From an uncultured Chitinophagaceae bacterium (GTDB lineage Bacteria; Bacteroidota; Ignavibacteria; UBA10030; UBA8401), in the NCBI GenBank assembly GCA_964384415.1, contig CAYLMV010000004.1:6103-70102 (forward strand): a DNA stretch of 64,000 bases, read 5' to 3'. Shown here piece by piece: positions 1 through 12,038 of the stretch (position 1 is the first letter of the stretch; every line of letters starts with the position of its first letter). The notes under the pieces are model-generated. The model ran no database searches. It was not told the origin of the DNA and saw only the letters and a list, made by a program, of their open reading frames with translations. Position numbers and translations under genes: made by a program.

Positions 1-1
1 T

Positions 2-358
2 TCGGTCAGCGCTATCCTGAAATTCGGGAGCGGACTTCCGTACACGCCTGCGATCGGTTCGGGGTTCGGCTCGCAGATCGAAACGAATTCGGGGACTGCT
101 CCGGCCGGATTGGTTGTCGATGTGCGTGCTGAGAAAGAGTTTGAGCTGGGCGGGCTCGGCATGAGCGCGTTCGTGCGCGTCTTCAACCTCTTCAACACGA
201 CGTATTTCAACGGCTCGGTCTTTCAGACGACCGGCAGTCCCGATTATTCGCTCGCCGCAACCGCCGACAGGGACATGCTTGCCAACCCGTTGCGATATTA
301 CGCCCCGAGAAAAATTGAGATTGGCATTTCGTTGTCTCAACTTGCGTCCGCAATGTAA
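2..358 (+). CDS. 3' end of an outer-membrane beta-barrel protein, TonB-dependent-receptor-like (partial, runs off the left edge)
   Basis: Frame 2 is open from the window edge to the TAA at 356-358. Alternating aromatic/polar strand-like segments (FVRVFNLFNTTYFNG, RYYAPRKIEIGISL) resemble TBDR/OMP barrel C-termini. The next co-oriented gene starts 19 nt downstream. Only about 118 aa are visible. Confidence 0.45.
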   Translation, partial: SVSAILKFGSGLPYTPAIGSGFGSQIETNSGTAPAGLVVDVRAEKEFELGGLGMSAFVRVFNLFNTTYFNGSVFQTTGSPDYSLAATADRDMLANPLRYYAPRKIEIGISLSQLASAM

Positions 359-377
359 CCTAGGGAGAGCTTCTTAT

Positions 378-3300
378 ATGAGAAAATACGGTCTCGTTCT
401 CTTTATTCTCTTCTTCATGTCGCCAAGTCTGCTCCATTCGCAGCTCCTTCCGGTTGTGCCATCGGACCAGCGCGGTACTTCGGACGCGGAGCGTATGGGG
501 ACGCACGATGCCAACAATATTGCGACGAGGTTCTGGAATTACGGCATGGTCGGCGATTTCTATTCCATAGATCCCGCAAATGTCAACCTGGCGGAATTCC
601 ATTCCGTCGAAGTTGGCGGTACAGGAATGAACTACAGCGACGGGATCACGCCGTTTGTCCTCGCGAAAGTCAAGCAGAACTCCGGCTCCACCGCGTACAT
701 CATGGAAACTGGTTACCGGGAAGGGCAGGGTACGAGCGTGGTGTTCAACCGGATTATGCGTTTTGAGCCCCGACCGGGATATTTCCAGAAGGACCCAGGT
801 ATCAACACATTGCGATCTGTTGCCATCAGCAGTGAGCCGAAGACATGGCCGCCCACATGGCCGGACAAGGATGCATCATGGAATGGACGTTGGAACGGGT
901 ATTTCGGAACATCGACCGCGTTTGCGCCGGATCAGGAAAGTTATACCGTTATGGATGATCAGTTTTACGATTCGTGGGATTACACTCCCGATAACAGGGA
1001 TGCAACGCGGCATGGGTTAGGTATGAAGATCGCCGTACGTGGTTTTCAATGGGCTACGCCTCAGGCGGGCGATGTGATCTTTTGGCATTACGATGTGACG
1101 AACGAAAGCACCACCGATTATCCGCAGAGCGGGAGCCCTGAGAACATCATCTTCGGCTTATACATGGACTCCGGCGTAGGCGGCTCGGCGCAAGGCTGCG
1201 ATCCGGTTCCCGAATCGGACGACGACAACGCTTTCTTTAATCGCACAAATTCACTGGGACTGAACCTGGTCTACACGTGGGATACGTACGGCCACGGCGT
1301 CGACCTTGTCAGCAAATGCAGCAGAACAGGATACCTGGGATATGCATACCTCGAGACTCCGGGAAAGTCGTTAGACGGGATCGATAATGACGGCGACGGC
1401 ATTATTGATGAGAGCAGATCCAGCGGTCCGGGTCAGAAAATTGTCGGGCAGCAGAATATCATTGCCTATCTTCAATCACACCCCGAAAAATACAACCTCA
1501 GCGCGTTCGAGGCTTACTACGGCAAGATCACCGACCGGCCGGCGTATAAGGCGGGCGTGTGGTGGACCGGAGATGAGGATATGGACTGGGTTGCCTCTCT
1601 GAATGATTTTGGACAGGACGGCGAACCGAATACTCACGACATCGGTGAAGGCGACGGAATTCCGACCGAGGGAGAACAGAATTTTGACGGCACTGATCTG
1701 CATGAATCCGATCAAATAGGTCTGACGGGTTTCAGAATGTGGAAGATCGGTTCCACGCAGGGACTGCCGACCGACGGCGGGATAACGTTTTATGACAACG
1801 GGAAACAAAATTATCCGCAGCTCTTTTATAATTTCTTCACCAACTCCTCGCCTTTGGCCCGGTTCGATACTGCGGTCGCCAACAATTATAATGTAGGCTT
1901 CCTGTTTGCGTCAGGCCCGTTCACGCTGAAAGCAGGAACACAGGAACGTTTCAGCCTTGCCCTGGCGTTCGGGTGGGACTTGAATGAGTTGATCAACACG
2001 ACAAAAGTAGTGCAGGCGATCTACAACGGAAATTACAAGTTCGCCACTCCGCCTCCCGTACCGACATTGTCTGCCGAAGCAGGCGACGGTTATGTTCAAC
2101 TTCGCTGGGACGATGTGGCGGAGCATTCCACGGATCCCACGACAGGGATCAACGATTTCGAAGGCTACAAGGTTTACCGTTCGACCGACTACCAATTCAA
2201 AGATGTCAACACCGTCATCTCCGCGCGCGGCATATCGCAGACGAGCAATGGAAATCCGATGGCGCAGTTCGACCTGAAGGATGGAATCGACGGGTACTCG
2301 ACCCAAGTGGTCAATGGACTGGCGTTCTATTTGGGGACCGAGACAGGACTCCAACATTCATTCCGCGATACCACAGTGGTTGACGGTCAACAATATTTCT
2401 ACGCAGTTACCTCGTATGATTTCGGCGCCACGATAATTCAGGGACTCTCAGGGGAGGCATTTACATTCTATCCCGCAGAGAATTCAATTTCGGTGTCGCG
2501 GACGCTTCTCGGGGGAATAAGTCTTCCGAAGAACGTCGTCGCTGTTCGCCCGAATCCAAGAGTGCTTGGATATCAACCGGCCGGGACGTCGGCCATCACG
2601 AAAATATCGGGGACCGGAATAGGAACCGTATCGGTGAAGGTGCTCTCCTCATCCCTTGTTCCCGCCGATCATATCATGAAGATTACCTTTAATACCAGTC
2701 CCGACAGCGTGCATCCTCTATCGTACAATTTAATAGACAGCACGGACGGCGATAAGGTAATTTTCAGCACCGGGAACGATTTTGACGCCTTGGGGAATGG
2801 AATCTCGGGCCTGGGAATTCAACCCGTCGTAAAGACCCTGCAAACGTACCAGGTCGACACGGCGCACACGGGTTTTGCTTTTGGAAGCCCGACGAATGCT
2901 CAACTCGATATAGGGTACATGGGAACATGGCCAGTCAACTTCAAGAGAACTGGCTTTCCAAATAGTTTCACTATCACGTTTGCCGATTCGACGATAGATA
3001 CGACGTATTCGGAACATTGGTACGATCCGATTATTCCGGTCAAATTCACCATCATCGCACATACGGAGAACGGAGATAAAAAACTGAAGTTCACGTTCTT
3101 TGACAGCAATAACGATTCAACGCTGAGCTATTCCAGCAATGCTGAGGAAATCGATATCCTCACGGGTGATGATTCGGTCGCTGCAGACCAGCGACTCACG
3201 TGGAGAGTGAGACTCAAGAACGCGACCGCCAGCACAAAGACTCCGGGCAAGGGAGATGTCTATGAATTCAAGACGATTCTTCCTTTCAGCTGGAATGATG

Positions 3301-3671
3301 TTTTCGTCTTCAAATCATCTGCGCTTCTTGTAGATCCGAATTCCGCCAAGCAGCAGTTCAAGCAAGGTCCCTACGTCGTTCCGAACCCGTATGTGGGGGC
3401 TGCCAGCTTTGAGCCGGCCCCGTTCGAAGTGCAGGGACGGGGCGACCGGAGAATGGAGTTTCGGAACCTGCCGAGGAGCTGTGTCATCAGGATCTACACT
3501 GTCCGTGGAGATTTGGTGAGAACATTGACGCACGACGGTTCTGTCGAGGGGTTCGTCGCATGGGATTTGCGGACCAAGGACAATTTGGATGTAGCGCCTG
3601 GATTGTATATCTATCAAGTTGACGGCGGCACCGCGGGCACGAGTATCGGGAAATTTGCAATCATCAAGTAA
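378..3671 (+). CDS. Large secreted protein of unknown function (1,097 aa): signal peptide, acidic Ca-binding-like repeats, Fn3-like domain, FlgD-Ig/T9SS-like C-terminal beta-sandwich
   Basis: I re-picked the start to the ATG at 378, which gives MRKYGLVLFILFFMSPSLLHSQ, a signal peptide. It has DGIDNDGDGIIDE and DFGQDGEPNTHDIGEGDGIPTEGEQNFDGTD acidic repeats and the Fn3-like segment PPVPTLSAEAGDGYVQLRWDD...YKVYRS. The C-terminus VIRIYTVRGDLVRTL...APGLYIYQV...GKFAIIK resembles a T9SS/FlgD-Ig sorting domain. I recognised no catalytic motif. Confidence 0.6.
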   Translation: MRKYGLVLFILFFMSPSLLHSQLLPVVPSDQRGTSDAERMGTHDANNIATRFWNYGMVGDFYSIDPANVNLAEFHSVEVGGTGMNYSDGITPFVLAKVKQNSGSTAYIMETGYREGQGTSVVFNRIMRFEPRPGYFQKDPGINTLRSVAISSEPKTWPPTWPDKDASWNGRWNGYFGTSTAFAPDQESYTVMDDQFYDSWDYTPDNRDATRHGLGMKIAVRGFQWATPQAGDVIFWHYDVTNESTTDYPQSGSPENIIFGLYMDSGVGGSAQGCDPVPESDDDNAFFNRTNSLGLNLVYTWDTYGHGVDLVSKCSRTGYLGYAYLETPGKSLDGIDNDGDGIIDESRSSGPGQKIVGQQNIIAYLQSHPEKYNLSAFEAYYGKITDRPAYKAGVWWTGDEDMDWVASLNDFGQDGEPNTHDIGEGDGIPTEGEQNFDGTDLHESDQIGLTGFRMWKIGSTQGLPTDGGITFYDNGKQNYPQLFYNFFTNSSPLARFDTAVANNYNVGFLFASGPFTLKAGTQERFSLALAFGWDLNELINTTKVVQAIYNGNYKFATPPPVPTLSAEAGDGYVQLRWDDVAEHSTDPTTGINDFEGYKVYRSTDYQFKDVNTVISARGISQTSNGNPMAQFDLKDGIDGYSTQVVNGLAFYLGTETGLQHSFRDTTVVDGQQYFYAVTSYDFGATIIQGLSGEAFTFYPAENSISVSRTLLGGISLPKNVVAVRPNPRVLGYQPAGTSAITKISGTGIGTVSVKVLSSSLVPADHIMKITFNTSPDSVHPLSYNLIDSTDGDKVIFSTGNDFDALGNGISGLGIQPVVKTLQTYQVDTAHTGFAFGSPTNAQLDIGYMGTWPVNFKRTGFPNSFTITFADSTIDTTYSEHWYDPIIPVKFTIIAHTENGDKKLKFTFFDSNNDSTLSYSSNAEEIDILTGDDSVAADQRLTWRVRLKNATASTKTPGKGDVYEFKTILPFSWNDVFVFKSSALLVDPNSAKQQFKQGPYVVPNPYVGAASFEPAPFEVQGRGDRRMEFRNLPRSCVIRIYTVRGDLVRTLTHDGSVEGFVAWDLRTKDNLDVAPGLYIYQVDGGTAGTSIGKFAIIK

Positions 3672-3683
3672 CAGAGGACAACT

Positions 3684-4694
3684 ATGACAAAAGGAATTGC
3701 AGTGTTCTTCGCTCTGCTTGTCCTCGCAGCGACTCAGGCACAAGCACAATCCAAAACAGGCACTACTGTGGGAGCGTTTCTCTCTATCGAACCGAGCGCT
3801 CGCATCGCCGGAATGGGGAATGCAGGGGTGACTAACTACGGCGAACCTGAAGCTGCGTACTATAATCCGGGCAGCGTCGGCTTTCTTCACGGAAATTCGG
3901 CCGAGTTCACGCACAGCCTGTGGCTTGCCGATATCACGTACGACTATGGAGTACTGACATTCGAGGTCGGGAACGCGGGCAATTTCTATGCAACGATGAC
4001 GTCTCTGAATTCGGGCGATATCGACGTGCGGACGGTTGCGCAACCTCTCGGCACGGGCGAACGCTATACTGTTTCGGATGTCGCCGTTGGAGTCGGGTTC
4101 GCGCGCCAGATTTCGGAGCGGTTTTCCGCCGGCTTAGAATTGAACTACATCCAGGAGACCATTTGGCACAGCGCCATGGGCGCGTATTCCATCAGCGTCG
4201 GAACGATCTACAGGATGTCGCCGGATGGGTTTCATCTGGGGGCCAGCATCTCCAACTTCGGGACGCGCGGCAAGTTCGACGGACGAGATTTGCGCGTACT
4301 CTACGACCAGAACATCGCAACGAACGGAGACAACGGAAACCTTCCGGCGGAATTATATACCGACAATTTTCCCTTGCCGATCATGCTCCGCATCGGTGTT
4401 GGATTGCCGATCAAAGTAGGGGAGGAGGACAAAATCACACTCGCGGCCGACGCGTTTCATCCGAGCGATAACACGGAGAGCGTAAGCTTCGGCGGAGAGT
4501 ACCTCTTCCAGAACATCTTTGCCTTGCGCGCAGGCTACCAAAACCTCTTTCTGCAGGATTCCGAAGTCGGTTTGACTCTCGGCGCTGGCATCCAGTACGA
4601 TATGGTGGGGTACAAATTGAACTTCGATTACGGCTGGGCAGATCACGGAAGGCTGAAAGACACACATCGACTCACCGTCGGGCTGTCGTTCTAG
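3684..4694 (+). CDS. PorV/PorQ-family outer-membrane beta-barrel protein (T9SS-associated, FadL-like)
   Basis: Signal peptide MTKGIAVFFALLVLAATQAQAQ. The N-terminal block GTTVGAFLSIEPSARIAGMGNAGVTNYGEPEAAYYNPGSVG matches the PorV/PorQ signature (..FL.IG.gARa.gMGgA..A..dd.sA.YWNPAGL). It ends in a barrel-closing strand (HRLTVGLSF). The gap to the upstream cargo gene is 12 nt. Confidence 0.7.
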   Translation: MTKGIAVFFALLVLAATQAQAQSKTGTTVGAFLSIEPSARIAGMGNAGVTNYGEPEAAYYNPGSVGFLHGNSAEFTHSLWLADITYDYGVLTFEVGNAGNFYATMTSLNSGDIDVRTVAQPLGTGERYTVSDVAVGVGFARQISERFSAGLELNYIQETIWHSAMGAYSISVGTIYRMSPDGFHLGASISNFGTRGKFDGRDLRVLYDQNIATNGDNGNLPAELYTDNFPLPIMLRIGVGLPIKVGEEDKITLAADAFHPSDNTESVSFGGEYLFQNIFALRAGYQNLFLQDSEVGLTLGAGIQYDMVGYKLNFDYGWADHGRLKDTHRLTVGLSF

Positions 4695-4733
4695 TGCTCG
4701 GCACCGATTTCTAAAAGACAAAAAGAGAAACTG

Positions 4734-7133
4734 TTGAAGACTTCGTACGGACATTTTTCAAAGGACGGAAGAGAGTTTGTGATCACGACGCCGCGGACGC
4801 CGCGACCTTGGATCAACGTCATCAGCAACGGTGATTACGGGATCACCGTTTCCCAGACAGGGAGCGGATACAGCTGGCGGACGCATGCTCAGCTCAACCG
4901 TCTCACGCGCTGGGACCAGGACCTTATCAAAGATGAATGGGGGAAATACATCTATCTGCGCGATGAACGGGGCAATGTCTGGTCTGCGGGTTGGAAGCCC
5001 GTGTGTGCGGAACCGGACAAGTATCGATGCAGGCACGGCATCGGATATACCATTATCGAGTCGAGCAATTACGGTATTGAGACTGAACTCCTCGTATTCC
5101 TGCCGGTCGATGAACCGATCGAGATTTGGAAACTGACGCTCCGCAACACTTCAAGAAAAACACGAGTGCTCGATCTCTTCACTTTTTTTGAATGGGCGCT
5201 CGGCCAGTCTCCCGATTGGCACCGGGAGTTTCACAAATCGTTCATCGAGACCGATTTTGATCCGAAGACGCATTCCGTTCTTGCGACGAAGCGCTTGTGG
5301 GAAGTGCCGACGAGCCGGGGACACTGGAACACAGACTGGCCGTATGTGGGGTTCCATTCTGTAGACATGAAGCCCGTTTCCTTCGAAACGGACAAGGAAT
5401 CATTCCTGGGGATGTATGGAAACCAGTCGCACCCAGCAGCCCTTGCGGGGAAACGGCTCAAGCAGATGAAAGGGAACTGGATCGACCATATCGGAAGTCT
5501 CCAGAATCGAGTTACGCTGAGACCAAACGAAGAAAAGACAATCTGCTATACGCTCGGCTGTGCAGGTTCGAAAGAAGAGGCGGCAACGCTTTCCAGAAAA
5601 TACCATTCTGCAGTAAATGTCAATAAGGCGTTCGAAAAAGTCCGCGAAAGATGGGGGACGATTCTGCGTACGGTGGAGATTGACACGCCGGACGAATCGA
5701 TGAACATCATGGAAAACGTCTGGCTGAAATATCAGGCCATCTCCGGGCGAATGTGGGGGAGAAGTGCTTACTATCAAACCGGCGGGGCGTTTGGATTTCG
5801 TGACCAGTTACAGGACAGCCAGCTCTGGCTTGTTATCGATCCGCAGCGTACAAAGGAGCAGCTGAAGCTGCACGCGAGGCATCAGTTCAAAGACGGAACG
5901 GTCTATCACTGGTGGCATCCGCTCTCCGAGATCGGCATGAAGAACCAGATTTCCGATAATCTGCTCTGGCTGCCGTATGTCATGAATGCGTATCTCCAGG
6001 AAACAAAGAATTTTTCCGTATTGGACGAGCGTGAACCCTTCGTCGATTTTCAAGAGCCGGCGACGATGTACGATCATTGCGTCCGAGCCATCGACAAAGC
6101 CCTGGAGCGGTTTAGCGTGCGGGGACTCCCTCTTATCGGGGCCGGAGATTGGAACGACGGTCTGAGTGCCGTCGGCCTCGAAATGAAAGGTGAATCAGTG
6201 TGGCTGGGACATTTTCTTCACAGAATCCTGCGTGACTTTGCGGTCATCGGAGAGACCGTCAAGGACAATCAGCGGGCAGAAAATTACAGAACCCGGGCGC
6301 AGAAGTTAAGAGATGTTCTTAATGCGGAGGGATGGGACGGTGAATATTACTTCGGCGCTACGAAGGACTCGGGAGAAAAAATCGGAAGCAGGGAGAATGC
6401 TGAAGGTTCTGTCTGGCTCAACCCTCAAACATGGGCAATCATCGGCGGCGTTGCAGATGATGAGCGGGCCCGCCAGGTGATGGATGTTGTTGAGAAGAAG
6501 TTGGAGAAGAAGATCGGCCCCCTGCTCCTCTCGCCCGCCTACACGAAGAGCGATTCAGAGATTGGCTATTTGACCCGCTACAGTCCGGGCATGAGGGAGA
6601 ACGGCGGCGTGTACACTCATGCGTCCACCTGGGCAGTCATCGCTGAGGCGATGCTGGGAAGAGGGGATGCGGCGTTTCGGATCTACTCGAAGCTGAATCC
6701 CATCAACCGGGGCAAGGAACCAAATACGTACGTCGCCGAGCCGTATGTGACGTCCGGAAATATCGAAGGGCCGGATTCAAAATTCTTCGGACGCGGCGGC
6801 TGGACCTGGTACTCCGGCTCCGCCACGTGGCTGTTCAAAGTCGGGTTAGAATGGATTCTGGGCGTCCGTCCCACAGTTGAAGGACTTCTTATCGATCCGT
6901 GCATTCCGAAGAAGTGGAGCACCTATACCGTCCGGCGAATGTTTCGCGGCGCAGAATACAACATCGAAGTGAGAAATCCCGGCCATGTCAACTGCGGCGT
7001 TCTGGAGATCTGGGTCGACGGAGAACAGCATTGCATGACGAAGGGGCCGCGGGAAAAAGTGATTCCCCAATTTGATGCTGGGACAAAACATGCGGTTCTC
7101 GCGGTGCTCGGCAAGGCAGAAGGAAACTCCTGA
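4734..7133 (+). CDS. GH94 glycoside phosphorylase (cellobiose/chitobiose/beta-gluco-oligosaccharide phosphorylase family), cytoplasmic
   Basis: The N-terminus MKTSYGHFSKDGREFVITTPRTPRPWINVIS parallels GH94 disaccharide-phosphorylase N-termini. It has the motifs GGAFGFRDQLQD, GAGDWNDGLS (catalytic Asp region) and ENGGVYTHA. There is no signal peptide. The start is a TTG at 4734. Substrate specificity cannot be read from the sequence. Confidence 0.8.
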   Translation: MKTSYGHFSKDGREFVITTPRTPRPWINVISNGDYGITVSQTGSGYSWRTHAQLNRLTRWDQDLIKDEWGKYIYLRDERGNVWSAGWKPVCAEPDKYRCRHGIGYTIIESSNYGIETELLVFLPVDEPIEIWKLTLRNTSRKTRVLDLFTFFEWALGQSPDWHREFHKSFIETDFDPKTHSVLATKRLWEVPTSRGHWNTDWPYVGFHSVDMKPVSFETDKESFLGMYGNQSHPAALAGKRLKQMKGNWIDHIGSLQNRVTLRPNEEKTICYTLGCAGSKEEAATLSRKYHSAVNVNKAFEKVRERWGTILRTVEIDTPDESMNIMENVWLKYQAISGRMWGRSAYYQTGGAFGFRDQLQDSQLWLVIDPQRTKEQLKLHARHQFKDGTVYHWWHPLSEIGMKNQISDNLLWLPYVMNAYLQETKNFSVLDEREPFVDFQEPATMYDHCVRAIDKALERFSVRGLPLIGAGDWNDGLSAVGLEMKGESVWLGHFLHRILRDFAVIGETVKDNQRAENYRTRAQKLRDVLNAEGWDGEYYFGATKDSGEKIGSRENAEGSVWLNPQTWAIIGGVADDERARQVMDVVEKKLEKKIGPLLLSPAYTKSDSEIGYLTRYSPGMRENGGVYTHASTWAVIAEAMLGRGDAAFRIYSKLNPINRGKEPNTYVAEPYVTSGNIEGPDSKFFGRGGWTWYSGSATWLFKVGLEWILGVRPTVEGLLIDPCIPKKWSTYTVRRMFRGAEYNIEVRNPGHVNCGVLEIWVDGEQHCMTKGPREKVIPQFDAGTKHAVLAVLGKAEGNS

Positions 7134-8717
7134 ATGAAAAAGTTCTTGAGATCGCTTACGGTTTTTGCTTTGTGCGCATTGGCAACCGGAGCGTCGGCGC
7201 AGACCACCGATGCTCTGCTGGATTCCATCCAGCATGGAGCTTTCAATTTTTTCTGGAAGGAGGCAAATCCCGCCAACGGTCTGATCAAAGACCGCAGCGC
7301 GCAGAATGCTCCGTGCAGTATCGCCTCTCTCGGTTTTGGACTGAGCGCGATCTGCATCGGAGTTGATCACGGGTGGGTGAGTCGGGAAGCTGCACGCGAC
7401 CGGGTGCTCACAGCGCTTACCACGCTCTGGCTTTCTCCGCAAGGAGGCGGAGAAAACGGGTATGCCGGCGAGTTTGGATTGTTTTATCACATGCTTGATA
7501 TGAGTACAGCAACCCGCACATGGAACAGTGAACTCTCGACGATCGACACGGCGCTCCTTCTCGCGGGGATCATCGATGCGCGTCAGTATTTTGACGGCAC
7601 CGATTCGCTGGAGACTCGCGTGCGCAGCCTTGCCGATTCGATCTACTACCGGATGGATTGGAACCTCATGCGAAACTACAATCCCGGTATTCTCATGGCA
7701 TGGCAGCCGACGACCGGGTTTGCAGGATATGGGCAATGGGTTGGATATTGCGAAGCCTCCATCATGTACCTTCTGGCGCTCGGTTCGCCGACGCATCCGA
7801 TAGATTACGACGGCTGGCTGACGTGGACACACGGCTATTCGTATGCGACAGAGTACGGGCAATCATATGTTGTATTTCCGCCGCTCTTTGGCCACCAGTA
7901 TTCCCAGTGCTGGATCGACTATCGGAATATTGCCGACGACTACATGCGGGACCATGGGCTGACCTATTTTGAGAATTCCCGCCGGGCAACCTTGGCCCAG
8001 CGCTCCTATTCCATCGCGAACCCCGGCCATCACGCCGGGTACAGCGATTCTCTCTGGGGAATCACCGCAAGCGATGCTCCGGGCGGCTACAGTGCGCGCG
8101 GCGCTCCCCCCGCTCAGGATGATGATGGGACCATTGCACCGACAGCGCCCATAGGCTCCATCGCCTTCGCACCGGAAGTCGTGATCCCGGTGATACATAA
8201 GATGTGGGATACATATCATGATCAACTCTGGACAACCTACGGGTTCCGCGACGCGTTCAACCTCGATCAGAACTGGTGGGATACCGACGTCATCGGCATC
8301 GATGAAGGTCCGATGATCATCATGATAGAGAACTACCGGACGCAGAAGGTCTGGAACAGATTCATGCAGAATCCCGACGTTCAACGCGGATTGGCAAATG
8401 CCAGATTCACTTCGGTGACGGCAGTTCCTCTTTCTATGACATCGCCGAAGGAATTTGCCCTCCTTCAAAACTACCCAAACCCGTTTAATCCGACGACACA
8501 GATACGCTACGAGCTGCAGGAACGATCGCACGTTCTCGTAAGAGTTTTCAATATTCTTGGCCAGCAGATAGCATTGCTTGCGGATGAAATGCAGGAACCC
8601 GGAATTCATCGGTACATCTTCCCCGGCCGCGATCAAAATCTGCCGAGCGGTGTCTATGTATACTCGGTGGCTGCAGGCGGAAAAGTGGCGACAAAAAAAA
8701 TGGTGTTGATCAAATGA
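7134..8717 (+). CDS. GH144-like endo-beta-1,2-glucanase ('glucoamylase family protein') with T9SS type-A C-terminal sorting domain
   Basis: Signal peptide MKKFLRSLTVFALCALATGASAQ. It has the blocks FFWKEANPANGLIKDRS, ELSTIDTALLLAG, LALGSPTHP, FGHQYSQCWIDYR, YFENSRRAT, DDDGTIAPTAP and GIDEGPMIIMIENYR. The C-terminus is LLQNYPNPFNPTTQIRYEL...VYVYSV...KKMVLIK. The start abuts the GH94 stop (TGA ATG). Confidence 0.75.
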   Translation: MKKFLRSLTVFALCALATGASAQTTDALLDSIQHGAFNFFWKEANPANGLIKDRSAQNAPCSIASLGFGLSAICIGVDHGWVSREAARDRVLTALTTLWLSPQGGGENGYAGEFGLFYHMLDMSTATRTWNSELSTIDTALLLAGIIDARQYFDGTDSLETRVRSLADSIYYRMDWNLMRNYNPGILMAWQPTTGFAGYGQWVGYCEASIMYLLALGSPTHPIDYDGWLTWTHGYSYATEYGQSYVVFPPLFGHQYSQCWIDYRNIADDYMRDHGLTYFENSRRATLAQRSYSIANPGHHAGYSDSLWGITASDAPGGYSARGAPPAQDDDGTIAPTAPIGSIAFAPEVVIPVIHKMWDTYHDQLWTTYGFRDAFNLDQNWWDTDVIGIDEGPMIIMIENYRTQKVWNRFMQNPDVQRGLANARFTSVTAVPLSMTSPKEFALLQNYPNPFNPTTQIRYELQERSHVLVRVFNILGQQIALLADEMQEPGIHRYIFPGRDQNLPSGVYVYSVAAGGKVATKKMVLIK

Positions 8718-10093
8718 AGAATCGCTTCAACGCACATCTTGGTGTTTGGTGCCTCCTTCTCCTTGTCCATTCGTCGTGGTCCCAGACGACTTCAACGACG
8801 GGTCCCTTCATTGATACCCTTCAGAATCGCACGATACAGTGGTTCCTCGATGTCACGCCGCGGGAAACCGGATTCACGCCGGACCGGTGGCCCACGCCGT
8901 CGCCGTCGAGCATCGCCGCTGTAGGGTTTGCACTGACGACGTATCCGATTGCTGTCGATCGAAAGCTCATCACCAGGAACGATGCTGCGGCCCGCACTCT
9001 CAATACGCTCCGTCATTTGTGGAACCTGCCGCAAAGCGCAAGCGCCGATGCAACCTCCGGCTACAAAGGCTTCTTCTATCACTTCATCGACACGAAGACG
9101 GGACTTCGCGCGTGGAACTGTGAACTTTCGACGATCGATACAGGCATCCTGATGGCCGGCGTTATTTTTGCCCAGTCGTTTTTTGACCGGAACGATCGTC
9201 AAGAAAAAGAGATACGAGCCATGGCCGATTCCTTGTTTCAAAGGGTCGACTGGCAATGGGCGATGAACGGTCAAAAGGGAGTCGTGATGGGATGGACGCC
9301 CGAAGAAGGATTCCATCATTCCATATGGCACGGCTATAATGAAGCCATGATCCTGTATGTTCTTGCTCTTGGATCTCCAACACATCCGGTTCCGGAGACT
9401 GCATGGAATGCCTGGACCAGCACCTATTTGTGGGCTGACTATTACGGCCAGGCTCACGTCGCCTTCATGCCTCTCTTCGGGCACCAATACTCGCAGGCAT
9501 GGATAGATTACAGGGGAATCAAAGATTCATACATGCAGAAGAAAGGGATCGATTATTTTGAGAATTCTCGCCGCGCGACGTACGTTCACCGGGAATATGC
9601 GCGAAAGAATCCGAATCACTGGATCGGTTATTCCGATTCCGTGTGGGGCATGACCGCGTGCGATGGACCACTGGATACGACGATGACTGTGGAAGGGCGC
9701 AGCCGGCTGTTTCGTTCATATTCAGCCCGCGGAACCGGAGCTGAAGAGGAGGTTGATGATGGAACGCTTTCACCCTGTGCGGCGGCCGGGTCCATTCCGT
9801 TTGCCCCGGAAATTTGTATTCCAGCACTCACGGCGATGAAAAATGTGTACGGTGACAAACTTTGGACGCGCTACGGTTTTGTCGATGCGTTTAATCCTAC
9901 CTTTCTTACTCCTTCGACTCCCGGCGGCTGGTTTGATCATGACTACCTCGGCATTGACCAGGGGCCCATCGTTCTGATGATTGAAAATTATCGAACTGGC
10001 TTCGTATGGGAAGTCATGAAGAAGAATCATTATATTGTGACCGGCTTGAAAAGAGCAGGGTTTACGGGCGGATGGCTGGAAACAAAGAAATAG
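8714..10093 (+). CDS. GH144-like endo-beta-1,2-glucanase paralogue, signal peptide but no T9SS domain (periplasmic)
   Basis: It shares blocks with the upstream paralogue: ELSTIDTGILMAG, LALGSPTHP, FGHQYSQAWIDYR, YFENSRRAT, DDGTLSPCAA and GIDQGPIVLMIENYRTG. Signal peptide MKNRFNAHLGVWCLLLLVHSSWSQ. Its start overlaps the previous stop by 4 bp (ATGA). Confidence 0.75.
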   Translation: MKNRFNAHLGVWCLLLLVHSSWSQTTSTTGPFIDTLQNRTIQWFLDVTPRETGFTPDRWPTPSPSSIAAVGFALTTYPIAVDRKLITRNDAAARTLNTLRHLWNLPQSASADATSGYKGFFYHFIDTKTGLRAWNCELSTIDTGILMAGVIFAQSFFDRNDRQEKEIRAMADSLFQRVDWQWAMNGQKGVVMGWTPEEGFHHSIWHGYNEAMILYVLALGSPTHPVPETAWNAWTSTYLWADYYGQAHVAFMPLFGHQYSQAWIDYRGIKDSYMQKKGIDYFENSRRATYVHREYARKNPNHWIGYSDSVWGMTACDGPLDTTMTVEGRSRLFRSYSARGTGAEEEVDDGTLSPCAAAGSIPFAPEICIPALTAMKNVYGDKLWTRYGFVDAFNPTFLTPSTPGGWFDHDYLGIDQGPIVLMIENYRTGFVWEVMKKNHYIVTGLKRAGFTGGWLETKK

Positions 10094-10229
10094 CTTTTTC
10101 CTCCCTTTTCCTGATTGACGAACCGAAAGCGCATTGCACCTCTCGCTGAGGCTTCTTCATACCTGATGTCGATCAACTTTCTTTCACCATTGAAACGGCT
10201 GAGAGCCGATTTGTCAGACAAATTGTCGA

Positions 10230-12038
10230 ATGAGGCTAAAACTGATCATGGAAAAAATCTCCTCTGTGAGCGCTGGAAGACTGCCGCTCTTCGTGCTCAT
10301 CTTTTTCCTGATGCTCATGGCAGCGAGAGAATCTCTACAGGCCCAGCCGTCGGCCATTACCACCTACTGCAATCCGATCGACATCAACTATCAATACAAC
10401 TTCGAGCAGATCAACGAAAACATATCATACCGCTCCGGCGCCGACCCGGTGATCGTGAACCACAACGGTGAGTATTATCTCTTCGTGACAAATTCGGGGG
10501 GTTGGTGGCATTCAAAGGATCTGCTCCGCTGGGAATATGTTGTGCCGGACAAATGGCCGATGGAAGATATCTGTGCGCCGGCCGCATTGTCGGTCCGCGA
10601 TACGCTTTATTTATTCCAATCCACTTTCATTCCGCGGCCGATCCTGTTTAGCACCAAACCTGAAACGGGACACCTTCAGTTCTTCAACCGGCTTATGCCT
10701 GATCTTCCGGACTCCGTCAAGGGTCCATGGGACCCGGATATTTTCTGGGATGCGGAAAAAGATCGGTGGTACCTCTATTGGGGCTCCTCAAATCTCTATC
10801 CCATTTACGGCATCGAGCTGGACCATCACAACCGGTTGGTGTACAGCGGAAAACCAAAGGAACTGATCTATCTGCATCCCGAGCGCCACGGATGGGAAAG
10901 ATTCGGTCAGGACCACACTGGGACGATCAATCCCTATGTGGAAGGGGCCTGGATGACCAAACATGAGGGCAAGTATTATCTCCAGTATGCGGCTCCCGGA
11001 ACGGAATACAACGTGTATGCAAACGGTACGTATATTGGAGACGATCCTCTCGGTCCCTTCACCTACGCTCCCTATAATCCCGTCTCCTACAAACCAGGGG
11101 GTTTTATGGCGGGGGCGGGCCACGGAAACACGTTCCAAGACAACTACGGCAATTACTGGAACACCGGAACGCCCTGGATCGGATTCAACTGGACCTTCGA
11201 GCGCCGCATCGCGATGTTCCCGACTGGTTTCGATTCCGACGGCCAGATGTACGCCAATACTCGCTTTGGAGATTTTCCGCAAACGTTGCCGAAGTCACGC
11301 TGGACAAAAAGCGATGATCTGTTTGCCGGCTGGATGCTGCTCTCATACAAGAAACCCGTCGCCGCCTCGTCCGCTCGCGATACCTTTTATGCCAGCTGCG
11401 TCACTGACGAGAATCCGCGGACGTTCTGGGTGGCCGCCGCAAACTCACCGGCCGAATGGCTTGCGATCGATCTTGGGCATGTTGACGACATCAAAGCAGT
11501 GCAAGTGAATTATGCCGATTACAAATCGAATATTTTTTCGAGCGATTCGACGATCTACACGCGATTCACAATCTCATCCTCTGTCGACGGAAAAGAGTGG
11601 AGAACAATCGCCGATCTTTCGAAAGAAAATCGAGATCGCCCGAATGCCTACATTGAGTTGCCGTCGACGGTGAAAGCGCGGTACATTCGATACAATCATC
11701 TCTACGTTGCGTCCCCCAATCTTGCCATCAGCGATATTCGTGTCTTCGGATACGGCGGCGAGCGGCTTCCCGATCCGCCTGCAGGCTTCTCCGTTCGCAG
11801 GGAAACGGACAGGCGGAATGCGATTGTTCAATGGAAGGGAGTTCCGGGGGCCGTTGGCTACAACATTCGCTGGGGGATACGGAGAGACAGACTGTATGAA
11901 ACGTACCAGGTTTTTGCAGACATGGAGACGAAACTCGAAATCCGGGCGCTCACCACTGAACAAGGATATTACTTTGCCGTTGAGACCTTTAATGAAAGGG
12001 GAGTCTCGGCGCTCAGTGAGGTCGCAGTTTGTCCCTAG
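10230..12038 (+). CDS. GH43-like beta-propeller glycoside hydrolase with C-terminal F5/8 type C (discoidin/CBM32-like) and Fn3-like domains
   Basis: ADPVIVNHNGEYYLFVTNSGGWWHSKDLLRWEYV and YVEGAWMTKHEGKYYLQYAAPG are GH43-type propeller blades. FWVAAANSPAEWLAIDLGHVDDIKAVQVNY is discoidin-like. There is a signal peptide. An alternative ATG lies at 10248. Confidence 0.65.
   Translation: MRLKLIMEKISSVSAGRLPLFVLIFFLMLMAARESLQAQPSAITTYCNPIDINYQYNFEQINENISYRSGADPVIVNHNGEYYLFVTNSGGWWHSKDLLRWEYVVPDKWPMEDICAPAALSVRDTLYLFQSTFIPRPILFSTKPETGHLQFFNRLMPDLPDSVKGPWDPDIFWDAEKDRWYLYWGSSNLYPIYGIELDHHNRLVYSGKPKELIYLHPERHGWERFGQDHTGTINPYVEGAWMTKHEGKYYLQYAAPGTEYNVYANGTYIGDDPLGPFTYAPYNPVSYKPGGFMAGAGHGNTFQDNYGNYWNTGTPWIGFNWTFERRIAMFPTGFDSDGQMYANTRFGDFPQTLPKSRWTKSDDLFAGWMLLSYKKPVAASSARDTFYASCVTDENPRTFWVAAANSPAEWLAIDLGHVDDIKAVQVNYADYKSNIFSSDSTIYTRFTISSSVDGKEWRTIADLSKENRDRPNAYIELPSTVKARYIRYNHLYVASPNLAISDIRVFGYGGERLPDPPAGFSVRRETDRRNAIVQWKGVPGAVGYNIRWGIRRDRLYETYQVFADMETKLEIRALTTEQGYYFAVETFNERGVSALSEVAVCP

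Follow-up and report, generated by a model that had tools for sequence, protein, structure and literature searches.

How does a bacterium that lacks SusD capture and import polysaccharide fragments across its outer membrane? We asked this of a 64,000-nt stretch of DNA (hereafter, the window) from an uncultured Chitinophagaceae bacterium (GCA_964384415.1, contig CAYLMV010000004.1, positions 6,103 to 70,102), in which three genes for predicted outer-membrane or secreted proteins precede genes for beta-1,2-glucan enzymes. An initial annotation had proposed that a barrel protein, a 1,097-aa secreted protein and a PorV/PorQ-like barrel form a surface glycan-capture or uptake complex that could functionally replace SusC/SusD. 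To test the underlying observation, we re-examined the gene coordinates and junctions. The features of the locus are as follows, in window coordinates.

2..358 (+), 5'-open: the C-terminal 118 codons of an 892-aa TonB-dependent receptor
378..3671 (+): a 1,097-aa secreted protein of an unnamed family, hereafter the large partner
441..2063 (+): its N-terminal domain (residues 22-562), a single compact, mostly-beta domain with a predicted beta-supersandwich and acidic DxDxDG-like loops
2064..2534 (+): an Fn3-like or Ig-like beta-sandwich segment (residues 563-719)
2535..3347 (+): a variable beta-sandwich stalk (residues 720-990)
3348..3668 (+): a divergent T9SS-type C-terminal sorting domain (residues 991-1097)
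3684..4694 (+): a 336-aa PorV/PorQ-family outer-membrane beta-barrel
4734..7133 (+): a GH94 phosphorylase with no signal peptide, the first catabolic gene after the three
7134..8717 (+): a GH144-type endo-beta-1,2-glucanase homologue with a type-A T9SS sorting domain, so probably the surface enzyme
8714..10093 (+): a second GH144 homologue, without a sorting domain

The first three genes are separated by gaps of 19 and 12 nt. GH94 starts at a TTG at 4734, 39 nt after the barrel's stop, and its N-terminus is typical of GH94 proteins (PF17167, 409.8 bits; PF06165, 273.2 bits). The GH94 stop (7131-7133) abuts the ATG of the first GH144 gene at 7134 (PF10091, 251.8 bits; TIGR04183, 35.1 bits), and this gene shares ATGA at 8714-8717 with the second GH144 gene (PF10091, 282.9 bits). 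Every sequence observation of the initial annotation was confirmed. The initial annotation also proposed that the three genes are apparently co-transcribed with GH94. We found no terminator-like structure at any of the three junctions and no significant structure in the 39-nt gap, and synteny is conserved, making co-transcription plausible on sequence grounds.

To identify the first gene, we recovered its full length from the contig (C4:3782-6460, where C4 is the contig of this locus); the full gene begins 2,321 nt before the window. It encodes a TonB-dependent receptor with a signal peptide, a CarboxypepD_reg N-terminal extension (PF13715, 70.7 bits), a Plug domain (PF07715, 27.8 bits against a cut-off of 23.9) and a 22-strand-type barrel (PF00593, 101.9 bits against a cut-off of 27). 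The receptor is not a member of the SusC family, as it scored only 81.8 bits against the 368-bit cut-off of the SusC/RagA model TIGR04056, with a match restricted to residues 35-157, the N-terminal extension and the start of the plug.

The large partner has a Sec-type signal peptide at about residues 1-22 with no lipobox, and no Pfam or NCBIfam model matched it at E<=0.01. More than 1,754 homologues were recovered in one search and 3,907 clusters at 50% identity in another, and the homologues that carry a source name are all called 'hypothetical protein'. To gain insight into its N-terminal domain, we predicted its structure with AlphaFold2 from 78 sequences (pLDDT 93.2, pTM 0.92). The top Foldseek hits to this model were mostly supersandwich-bearing GH15, GH94, GH149, GH116 and GH63 enzymes (probability 0.97-1.0, TMq 0.24-0.37), although the domain has too few helices for an (alpha/alpha)6 barrel. 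It carries DxDxDG-like acidic loops, for example DGIDNDGDGIIDE, and the only PDB sequence match for this region is a weak EF-hand hit (E 0.24). Assignment of the following Fn3-like segment, evident around residues 563-700, rests on the strand pattern of the full-length model, a weak Fn3-like PDB match (3mpc) and Fn3-chain hits in Foldseek. The N-terminal domain and the Fn3-like segment are conserved among paralogues, whereas the stalk (pLDDT 88-95) is the least conserved part in both paralogues (identity 0.15-0.30) and orthologues (identity 0.27-0.48).

We next asked if the C-terminal domain (PYVVPNPY...RGDRR.EF.NLP...GKFAIIK) is a T9SS sorting domain, as the initial annotation had described a C-terminal sandwich that differs from the NYPNPFNP-type domains of the two other T9SS cargos in the window. 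The full protein gave no hit to the curated type-A models (TIGR04183, PF18962) at E<=0.01, the last 113 aa gave only FlgD_ig at E 0.024, and a type-A model trained on this genome missed the copies on contigs C4 and C12 and hit four paralogues only weakly. The type-B models (CHU_C PF13585, TIGR04131) did not match the window copy either, and the paralogue on contig C39 reached only E 0.017. However, profile-profile comparison (hhalign) of the tail against 190 type-A tails of this genome gave a probability of 97.8% and E 9e-13 over 48 columns, demonstrating that the tail is a divergent homologue of the type-A sorting domain and closer to type A than to type B. The best PDB sequence match of the tail is the retained sorting domain of PorZ (5m11, E 0.063). 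The tail is among the most conserved parts across paralogues. Full-length matches to this tail type occur in only 8 ORFs of the genome, 7 of which are followed directly by a PorV/PorQ-family gene (the exception, on contig C76, has no adjacent barrel gene), while about 181 ordinary type-A cargos were found by the same kind of search. The next-best match of the tail model is the genome's PorU candidate, which is itself followed by the PorV candidate.

The third gene product passes the PorV/PorQ family model NF033709 with 195.5 bits (cut-off 90) over residues 27-336 of 336, but fails the equivalog cut-offs for PorV (NF033710, 88.7 bits against 250) and PorQ (NF033711, 83.9 bits against 220). A Pfam scan at E<=0.01 returned only PF19572 (PorV) and no PorP_SprF match, and the only PDB match is Flavobacterium johnsoniae PorV (6h3i_F, E 2.7e-12). 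The canonical candidates lie elsewhere in the genome, with the best PorV candidate at C84:1706-2833 (239.6 bits, next to a PorU-like gene) and a PorQ candidate that passes its cut-off at C37:18457-19425 (232.5 bits). The barrel is an extra, separate paralogue, apparently dedicated to the preceding gene, and is not shown to be a PorV orthologue. T9SS is present in this genome, as SprA, PorU-like, PorV and PorQ candidates were identified.

To determine if this arrangement occurs by chance, we looked for it elsewhere. The genome contains at least 7 copies. Receptor, large partner and barrel keep the same order and strand in all 80 orthologous loci wherever the contig allows, and in 39 of 40 diverse paralogous loci from about 30 genomes, so that the order is kept in about 119 of 120 loci examined across Ignavibacteria, Rhodothermales, Calditrichia, KSB1, Eisenbacteria and Krumholzibacteriia, with median gaps of 2-15 nt. 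The recurrence shows that the arrangement is not due to chance. The direct adjacency of barrel and cargo genes in these loci, and the barrel gene that follows 7 of the 8 ORFs with this tail type in this genome, are as found for specific cognate cargo-barrel pairs. The three genes also co-diverge as a unit (r 0.83-0.93), although this does not single out a tail-barrel link, as the partial r of 0.34 is explained equally well by en-bloc duplication.

The genomic context of these cassettes is mostly one of T9SS-sorted CBM proteins and glycoside hydrolases, sugar importers and LacI regulators. The orthologous locus keeps a 666-aa cargo gene (66 of 80), GH144 (57), LacI (49) and GH94 (46). Among 79 nearest neighbours of paralogue cassettes we counted Por_Secre_tail (40), CBM9 (7), sugar SBP (6), GH2 (4), LacI (4), CBM4_9 (4), GH16 (3), malectin (3) and CBM20 (2). 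Copies in this genome sit beside GH16+malectin/MFS/GH3, an ABC importer plus a GH, CBM9 cargo, CBM20/48 cargo and, in one case, an M6 peptidase, indicating that the cassette is not restricted to glycans.

To assess the relationship of the cassette to SusD, we searched for SusD (PF07980, PF14322) and found none in the window or anywhere in the 98%-complete genome, while a Bacteroides control was positive. However, in a sample of 151 genomes of the phylum, 36 of the 64 with strong matches to the cassette also have SusD, so it is not a strict replacement.

From these data, we propose, with moderate confidence, that the three genes encode one outer-membrane nutrient-capture and import unit, the head of a SusD-less polysaccharide-utilisation locus for beta-1,2-glucan that probably does the job of SusC/SusD in Bacteroides. 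In this view, a LacI-type regulator would control the locus, and T9SS would export ordinary type-A cargo, the upstream 666-aa protein and the first GH144, to the surface, where the glucanase would cut the polymer. The large partner would cross the inner membrane by Sec, be recognised by T9SS through its divergent C-terminal domain, and be taken from the translocon by its own PorV/PorQ-family barrel rather than the general PorV. The C-terminal domain would not be cleaved but stay bound to the barrel, which would act as a membrane anchor, as PorQ does for PorZ and SprF does for SprB. The anchored protein would sit beside or over the receptor, where its Ca-stabilised supersandwich domain would capture oligosaccharide and pass it on for TonB-powered import, the role that SusD and the surface glycan-binding proteins play in Bacteroides. 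Periplasmic GH144 and GH3, an ABC importer and the cytoplasmic GH94 would finish the job.

The gene content, order and spacing, the homology of the tail and the barrel, the predicted fold of the N-terminal domain, the multi-copy nature of the cassette, its CAZyme context, the absence of SusD and the presence of T9SS are established by our analysis, whereas co-transcription with GH94, T9SS export, surface exposure, retention of the tail, tail-barrel binding, association with the receptor in a physical complex, and sugar binding are inferred without direct evidence. The supersandwich fold is typical of sugar-acting enzymes and occurs here without their catalytic barrel, but the fold match is partial and covers only the supersandwich, so sugar binding is an analogy. 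In addition, it is the N-terminal domain that is conserved and the stalk that varies, which is not what one expects if the N-terminal domain alone sets substrate specificity across loci for different substrates. The interpretation given in the initial annotation is thus partly supported: comparative evidence favours its core idea of a surface capture and uptake module in a SusD-less genome. The initial annotation could name no characterised precedent, but half of the arrangement, a T9SS cargo with a cognate barrel encoded by the neighbouring gene, is known from PorZ-PorQ, PorU-PorV, SprB-SprF and PG1035-PorP (PMC10202324, PMC9143113, PMC12618676). We found no paper describing the combination of such a pair with a TonB-dependent receptor.

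We considered other explanations for this arrangement. It is possible, although we think it unlikely, that the barrel is only a dedicated export shuttle that extracts the large partner from the T9SS translocon, after which the protein is released or attached to lipopolysaccharide, so that the link to the receptor is one of shared regulon only, with no stable three-part complex. PorP/SprF-type barrels are needed for secretion of their cognate cargo (PMC12618676), and gene adjacency alone cannot separate a shuttle from an anchor. However, the strict fusion of the pair to a TonB-dependent receptor gene, with such short gaps in about 119 of 120 loci, is hard to explain without joint function, and in the characterised cognate pairs the barrel also remains the anchor (PMC9143113, PMC10202324). 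Less likely still, the large partner could be an unrecognised surface enzyme (a new glycoside hydrolase, lyase or esterase) that pre-digests substrate for the receptor, given that the structural neighbours of its N-terminal domain are carbohydrate-active enzymes and that it has many invariant Asp, Glu and His residues. Yet the matches cover only the non-catalytic supersandwich, no catalytic (alpha/alpha)6 or TIM barrel is present in the model, the same conserved N-terminal domain sits in loci for beta-1,2-glucan, beta-1,3-glucan (GH16), starch-type (CBM20/48) and a peptidase locus, and the loci already encode dedicated T9SS-sorted enzymes.

We regard as very unlikely the possibility that the cassette is an outer-membrane biogenesis or structural unit rather than a nutrient importer, comparable to the Bacteroidota BAM complex, which contains the FadL/PorV-like barrel BamG and peptidyl-prolyl isomerases. 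A PpiC-type isomerase gene follows the barrel in 10 of 40 paralogue loci, BamG is a FadL-type barrel that binds surface proteins (PMC12578637), and one paralogue gives a weak BamG hit. In contrast, there are 5-11 differently diverged copies per genome, each in a different catabolic locus under sugar regulators, and the receptor has a Plug domain typical of TonB-dependent import.

To place the cassette among characterised systems, we compared it with each in turn. Like the SusC/SusD (RagA/RagB) core of Bacteroidota polysaccharide utilisation loci, it has a TonB-dependent receptor gene with a CarboxypepD_reg extension followed directly by the gene of a putative surface partner, occurs in many paralogous copies per genome, and heads loci of CAZymes, surface binding proteins, regulators and inner-membrane importers. 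It differs in its receptor, in a partner that is not a TPR-type SusD lipoprotein but a 1,000-1,600-aa all-beta protein with a Sec leader and a T9SS-like tail, and in an obligatory third gene for the barrel. In the PorZ-PorQ and PorU-PorV pairs of the Porphyromonas gingivalis T9SS attachment complex, a cargo keeps its C-terminal domain and is held on the surface by a PorV/PorQ-family barrel (PMC10202324), but those pairs are single-copy parts of the secretion machine, whereas the pair described here is multi-copy, fused to a TonB-dependent receptor and located in catabolic loci, with tail retention only inferred. In type-B cargo systems (SprB-SprF, Fjoh_3952-Fjoh_3951, PG1035-PorP), the barrel is likewise encoded immediately downstream of its cargo, pairing is specific and stoichiometric, and the barrel serves as both shuttle and anchor (PMC9143113, PMC12618676), but these are PorP/SprF barrels and no TonB-dependent receptor is part of them ('TonB' occurs zero times in both papers). 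In BtuB-BtuG type pairs, a TonB-dependent transporter is capped by a surface-exposed all-beta partner that captures the ligand, but BtuG is a surface lipoprotein and no T9SS tail or anchoring barrel is involved.

A broader reading, which we hold only tentatively, is that the cassette defines a third class of T9SS sorting signal with its own PorV-family anchor and a second, SusD-independent architecture of TonB-dependent 'utilisome' (receptor plus T9SS-delivered, barrel-anchored catcher), which would be the main glycan-import device of Ignavibacteria, Rhodothermales, Calditrichia, KSB1, Eisenbacteria and related phyla, and possibly an older solution than the SusD lipoprotein lid. Polysaccharide utilisation loci are recognised and counted by the SusC/SusD pair, and genomes without SusD are therefore scored as having few or none. 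If this cassette is the working equivalent, glycan-degrading capacity has been under-called in Ignavibacteria, Calditrichia, KSB1, Eisenbacteria and similar abundant sediment, soil and groundwater lineages, and a simple three-gene marker would locate their substrate-specific loci. It would also extend the principle of a cargo with a private barrel from motility adhesins and the secretion machine itself to nutrient uptake, and give a function to a family of several thousand large proteins currently all called hypothetical.

For beta-1,2-glucan specifically, the cassette would name the candidate outer-membrane uptake step left open by work on the Ignavibacterium album endo-beta-1,2-glucanase (SGL) gene cluster, IALB_1177-1187. 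This is the orthologous locus, with GH94, two GH144, a GH35-type beta-1,2-glucosyltransferase, an ABC binding protein and a TonB-dependent transporter (PMC8861115). The large partner and the barrel do not appear in the passages of that paper describing the cluster, and the word 'hypothetical' does not occur in its text. In our comparison, two I. album MAG loci (L051 and L052) carry the same trio.

To verify the gene arrangement at the start of the window, we re-examined its open reading frames and junctions, and we extended the first, truncated gene by reading upstream on its contig (C4). The window is C4:6103-70102 of a 4.6-Mb, 98%-complete draft genome whose closest relatives are Ignavibacteria-type MAGs. 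The features of this region are:

window 2..358 (+), 5'-open, end of the receptor gene
window 378..3671 (+), gene for the 1,097-aa large protein
window 3684..4694 (+), gene for the PorV/PorQ-family barrel
window 4734-7133, GH94 gene, TTG start
contig C4:1676-3676 (L002:1676-3676, L002 being our handle for this locus), gene for a 666-aa protein, upstream of the window
contig C4:3684-3719 (L002:3684-3719), hairpin, about 2.4 kb upstream of window base 1

The gaps between the first three genes are 19 and 12 nt, the GH94 gene follows after 39 nt and abuts the first GH144 gene, and the two GH144 genes share ATGA. The ORFs and junctions described in the initial annotation were all confirmed. The truncated first gene encodes an 892-aa TonB-dependent receptor with a CarboxypepD_reg extension, a Plug and a barrel, and it scores far below the SusC/RagA cut-off. 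Ahead of the receptor gene lie a LacI-family regulator and the gene for the 666-aa protein, which has a type-A T9SS sorting domain but no other recognisable domain and no PDB relative. This protein is conserved directly upstream of the receptor in 66 of 80 orthologous beta-1,2-glucan loci. We consider it a candidate beta-1,2-glucan surface-binding protein or an unclassified enzyme. The GH94 gene encodes a protein of the short (799-aa) cellobiose-phosphorylase-like type, although it sits in a beta-1,2-glucan locus; the characterised 1,2-beta-oligoglucan phosphorylases are longer.

To assess what the large protein is, we first scanned it, whole and in four pieces, against Pfam and NCBIfam, and found no match above noise. 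The protein belongs to a very large family, with more than 1,754 hits in one search, of which those that carry a source name are all called 'hypothetical protein', and 3,907 clusters at 50% identity in an exhaustive search, with lengths mostly of 1,000-1,600 aa. A search for contigs encoding the window's own protein returned no record. A full-length AlphaFold2 model was only moderate (pLDDT 73), and a Foldseek search with it returned generic Fn3/Ig chains at TM below 0.1, which is uninformative. We therefore modelled residues 22-562 alone with a deeper alignment of 78 orthologues and paralogues, which predicted one compact domain (pLDDT 93.2, pTM 0.92). The structural neighbours of this model are nearly all enzymes that carry an N-terminal beta-supersandwich, namely GH15-type dextran dextrinase and glucodextranase, GH94 phosphorylases, GH149, GH161, GH116 and GH63 (best hits: probability 0.97-1.0, TMq 0.24-0.37). 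As the query has only a handful of short helices, it is predicted to share the sugar-associated sandwich but not the catalytic (alpha/alpha)6 barrel. Acidic DxDxDG-like loops are present in the large protein, but their only match in a profile search of the PDB was a weak hit to an EF-hand protein (E 0.24). The N-terminal domain is followed by an Fn3-like segment, a confidently folded but poorly conserved beta-sandwich stalk (residues 720-990) and a C-terminal domain. The C-terminal domain, the N-terminal domain and the Fn3 segment are conserved, while the stalk varies.

The C-terminal domain fails the curated type-A and type-B T9SS models. However, a profile-profile comparison with about 190 type-A tails from this genome gave 97.8% probability and E 9e-13, and the best PDB sequence match of the family profile, although weak (E 0.063), is the tail of PorZ, which stays uncleaved and binds PorQ (PMC10202324). 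The third gene passes only the PorV/PorQ family model, and its sole PDB relative is PorV. The genome encodes separate canonical T9SS candidates, including a PorV candidate beside a PorU-like C25 peptidase, a PorQ candidate and SprA, together with about 181 type-A cargos. With a rough estimate of about 4,000 genes in 4.6 Mb, these cargos make up 4-5% of all genes, an unusually large T9SS secretome. In a tree of PorV/PorQ-family barrels the deep branches were unresolved, and the cassette barrels are not shown to form a clade apart from the PorV candidate.

To determine if the three genes form a recurrent unit, we searched for them elsewhere in this genome and in public genomes. In this genome, the receptor, the large protein and the barrel recur together on contigs C67, C39 and C41, and partial copies sit at contig ends on C12, C193, C194, C58 and C238. 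The C41 copy (C41:1492-7737) is a variant with a shorter middle protein, in which an 815-codon frame that ends in the same tail type lies between a 988-aa receptor and a PorV/PorQ-family barrel; a six-frame search shows that this frame is open, which rules out a reading of this copy as decayed. In public genomes, 586 loci encode relatives, and MAGs labelled Ignavibacterium album and Melioribacter roseus carry the locus. The best 80 are orthologous loci from MAGs labelled Ignavibacteria, Eisenbacteria, Krumholzibacteriia, Calditrichia, KSB1 and Rhodothermales, plus a few labelled Fibrobacteraceae, and all show receptor, large protein and barrel on one strand wherever the contig allows. Of 40 deliberately diverse paralogous loci from about 30 genomes of the phylum, 39 show the same order; the exception, in another genome (locus L127:3976-11423), has the order receptor, barrel, large protein. 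Median intergenic gaps are 2-15 nt, and pairwise distances of all parts correlate at r 0.79-0.93, from which we conclude that the cassette duplicates and diverges as a unit. For the same reason, a mirror-tree test for a specific link between tail and barrel did not discriminate, as every part co-diverges with every other part.

We next asked whether the cassette is associated with glycan degradation. The orthologous loci keep the 666-aa cargo (66/80), GH144 (57), LacI (49) and GH94 (46), which matches the I. album beta-1,2-glucanase cluster (PMC8861115), for which only a TonB-dependent transporter 'without biochemical evidence' is mentioned in the passages searched. Among the 79 nearest neighbours of the diverse paralogous cassettes, we found 40 proteins with a type-A sorting domain, 10 PpiC-type isomerases, 7 CBM9, 6 sugar-binding proteins of ABC importers, 4 each of GH2, LacI and CBM4_9, 3 GH16, 3 malectin and 2 CBM20. 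In this genome, the other copies sit beside GH16+malectin, MFS and GH3; an ABC importer and a GH94-superfamily enzyme; CBM9 cargo and CBM20/48 cargo; and, in one case, an M6 peptidase. Occurrence of the trio in random contexts, which had been set beforehand as a result that would count against a link to glycans, was therefore not observed, although the cassette is not strictly glycan-only. The PpiC-type peptidyl-prolyl isomerase (540-620 aa, possibly SurA-like) is encoded immediately after the PorV-like barrel in about a quarter of the cassettes (C67:9516-11135 and C12:38811-40661 in this genome; 10 of the 40 paralogue loci, L102-L141), and may be a periplasmic chaperone for the outer-membrane proteins of the cassette.

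To look for a specific link between tail and barrel, we ran a model of the large protein's tail over the six-frame translation of the genome. The model matches end to end in only eight ORFs, seven of which are followed directly by a PorV/PorQ-family gene. The one orphan of this tail type (C76:4508-6931) is a protein of approximately 800 aa that carries this C-terminal domain over its full length (71.9 bits), has no adjacent PorV/PorQ-family gene or receptor, and lies between a LysM/SLT protein and a type-A cargo. The next-best hit is the PorU candidate, which is followed by the PorV candidate, whereas ordinary type-A tails match only partially and weakly. This pattern mirrors the published rule for type-B cargo and PorP/SprF barrels, in which the barrel is encoded by the next gene, is needed in stoichiometric amounts and stays as the anchor (PMC9143113, PMC12618676).

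Neither SusD model matches this genome, in agreement with the absence of a SusD-like gene from the window that had been noted initially. To test if the cassette and SusD exclude each other, we examined 151 sampled genomes of the phylum, of which 64 have strong matches to the large-protein family (typically 4-11 copies), 78 have SusD and 36 have both. We found no anticorrelation by presence or absence (Fisher p 0.41); SusD copy number is only lower where the cassette is present. In the window's own class, 25 of 37 genomes have strong matches and 9 of 37 have SusD, mostly as a single copy. The cassette is thus the dominant arrangement in this lineage, and it coexists with SusCD elsewhere.

The three junctions from the receptor to GH94 have no significant RNA structure (z 0.25 to 0.71), and no terminator-like site lies at any of them. 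Sigma-70 promoter and terminator scans were at chance level, although this promoter model may not apply to this lineage, and an Rfam search of positions 1-12,000 returned nothing. Co-transcription of the trio with GH94, as proposed in the initial annotation, is therefore plausible on sequence evidence alone. The hairpin between the gene for the 666-aa cargo and the receptor gene has a 16-bp GC-rich stem (-54.5 kcal/mol, z -6.9) with no U-tract after it, and comparable hairpins (z < -3) lie within 160 nt upstream of the receptor gene in 29 of 101 related loci. This element may be a partial terminator, or a transcript-stabilising element that sets the cargo-to-receptor expression ratio.

Together, the best-supported reading of these data is that the cassette is a receptor-centred capture and import unit, whose surface partner would be delivered by T9SS and held by a private PorV-family barrel. 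Such a unit would be functionally parallel to SusC/SusD and mechanistically parallel to PorZ-PorQ and SprB-SprF. The gene order, the cassette's recurrence, the tail homology and the neighbouring genes are results of our analysis, while export, anchoring, capture and import are inferred from them. The initial proposal of a surface glycan-capture or uptake complex that could replace SusC/SusD is thus partly supported. Literature searches that combined PorV or T9SS with TonB, SusC/SusD, Ignavibacteria or related subjects found no description of this combination. Alternatively, the barrel may serve only as a shuttle, the large protein may be an enzyme, or the cassette may have a role in biogenesis.

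Finally, PorV/PorQ-family genes in this genome also occur outside the cassette, as two tandem paralogues (299 and 315 aa) at C25:35532-37389 have no large-protein or receptor gene next to them.
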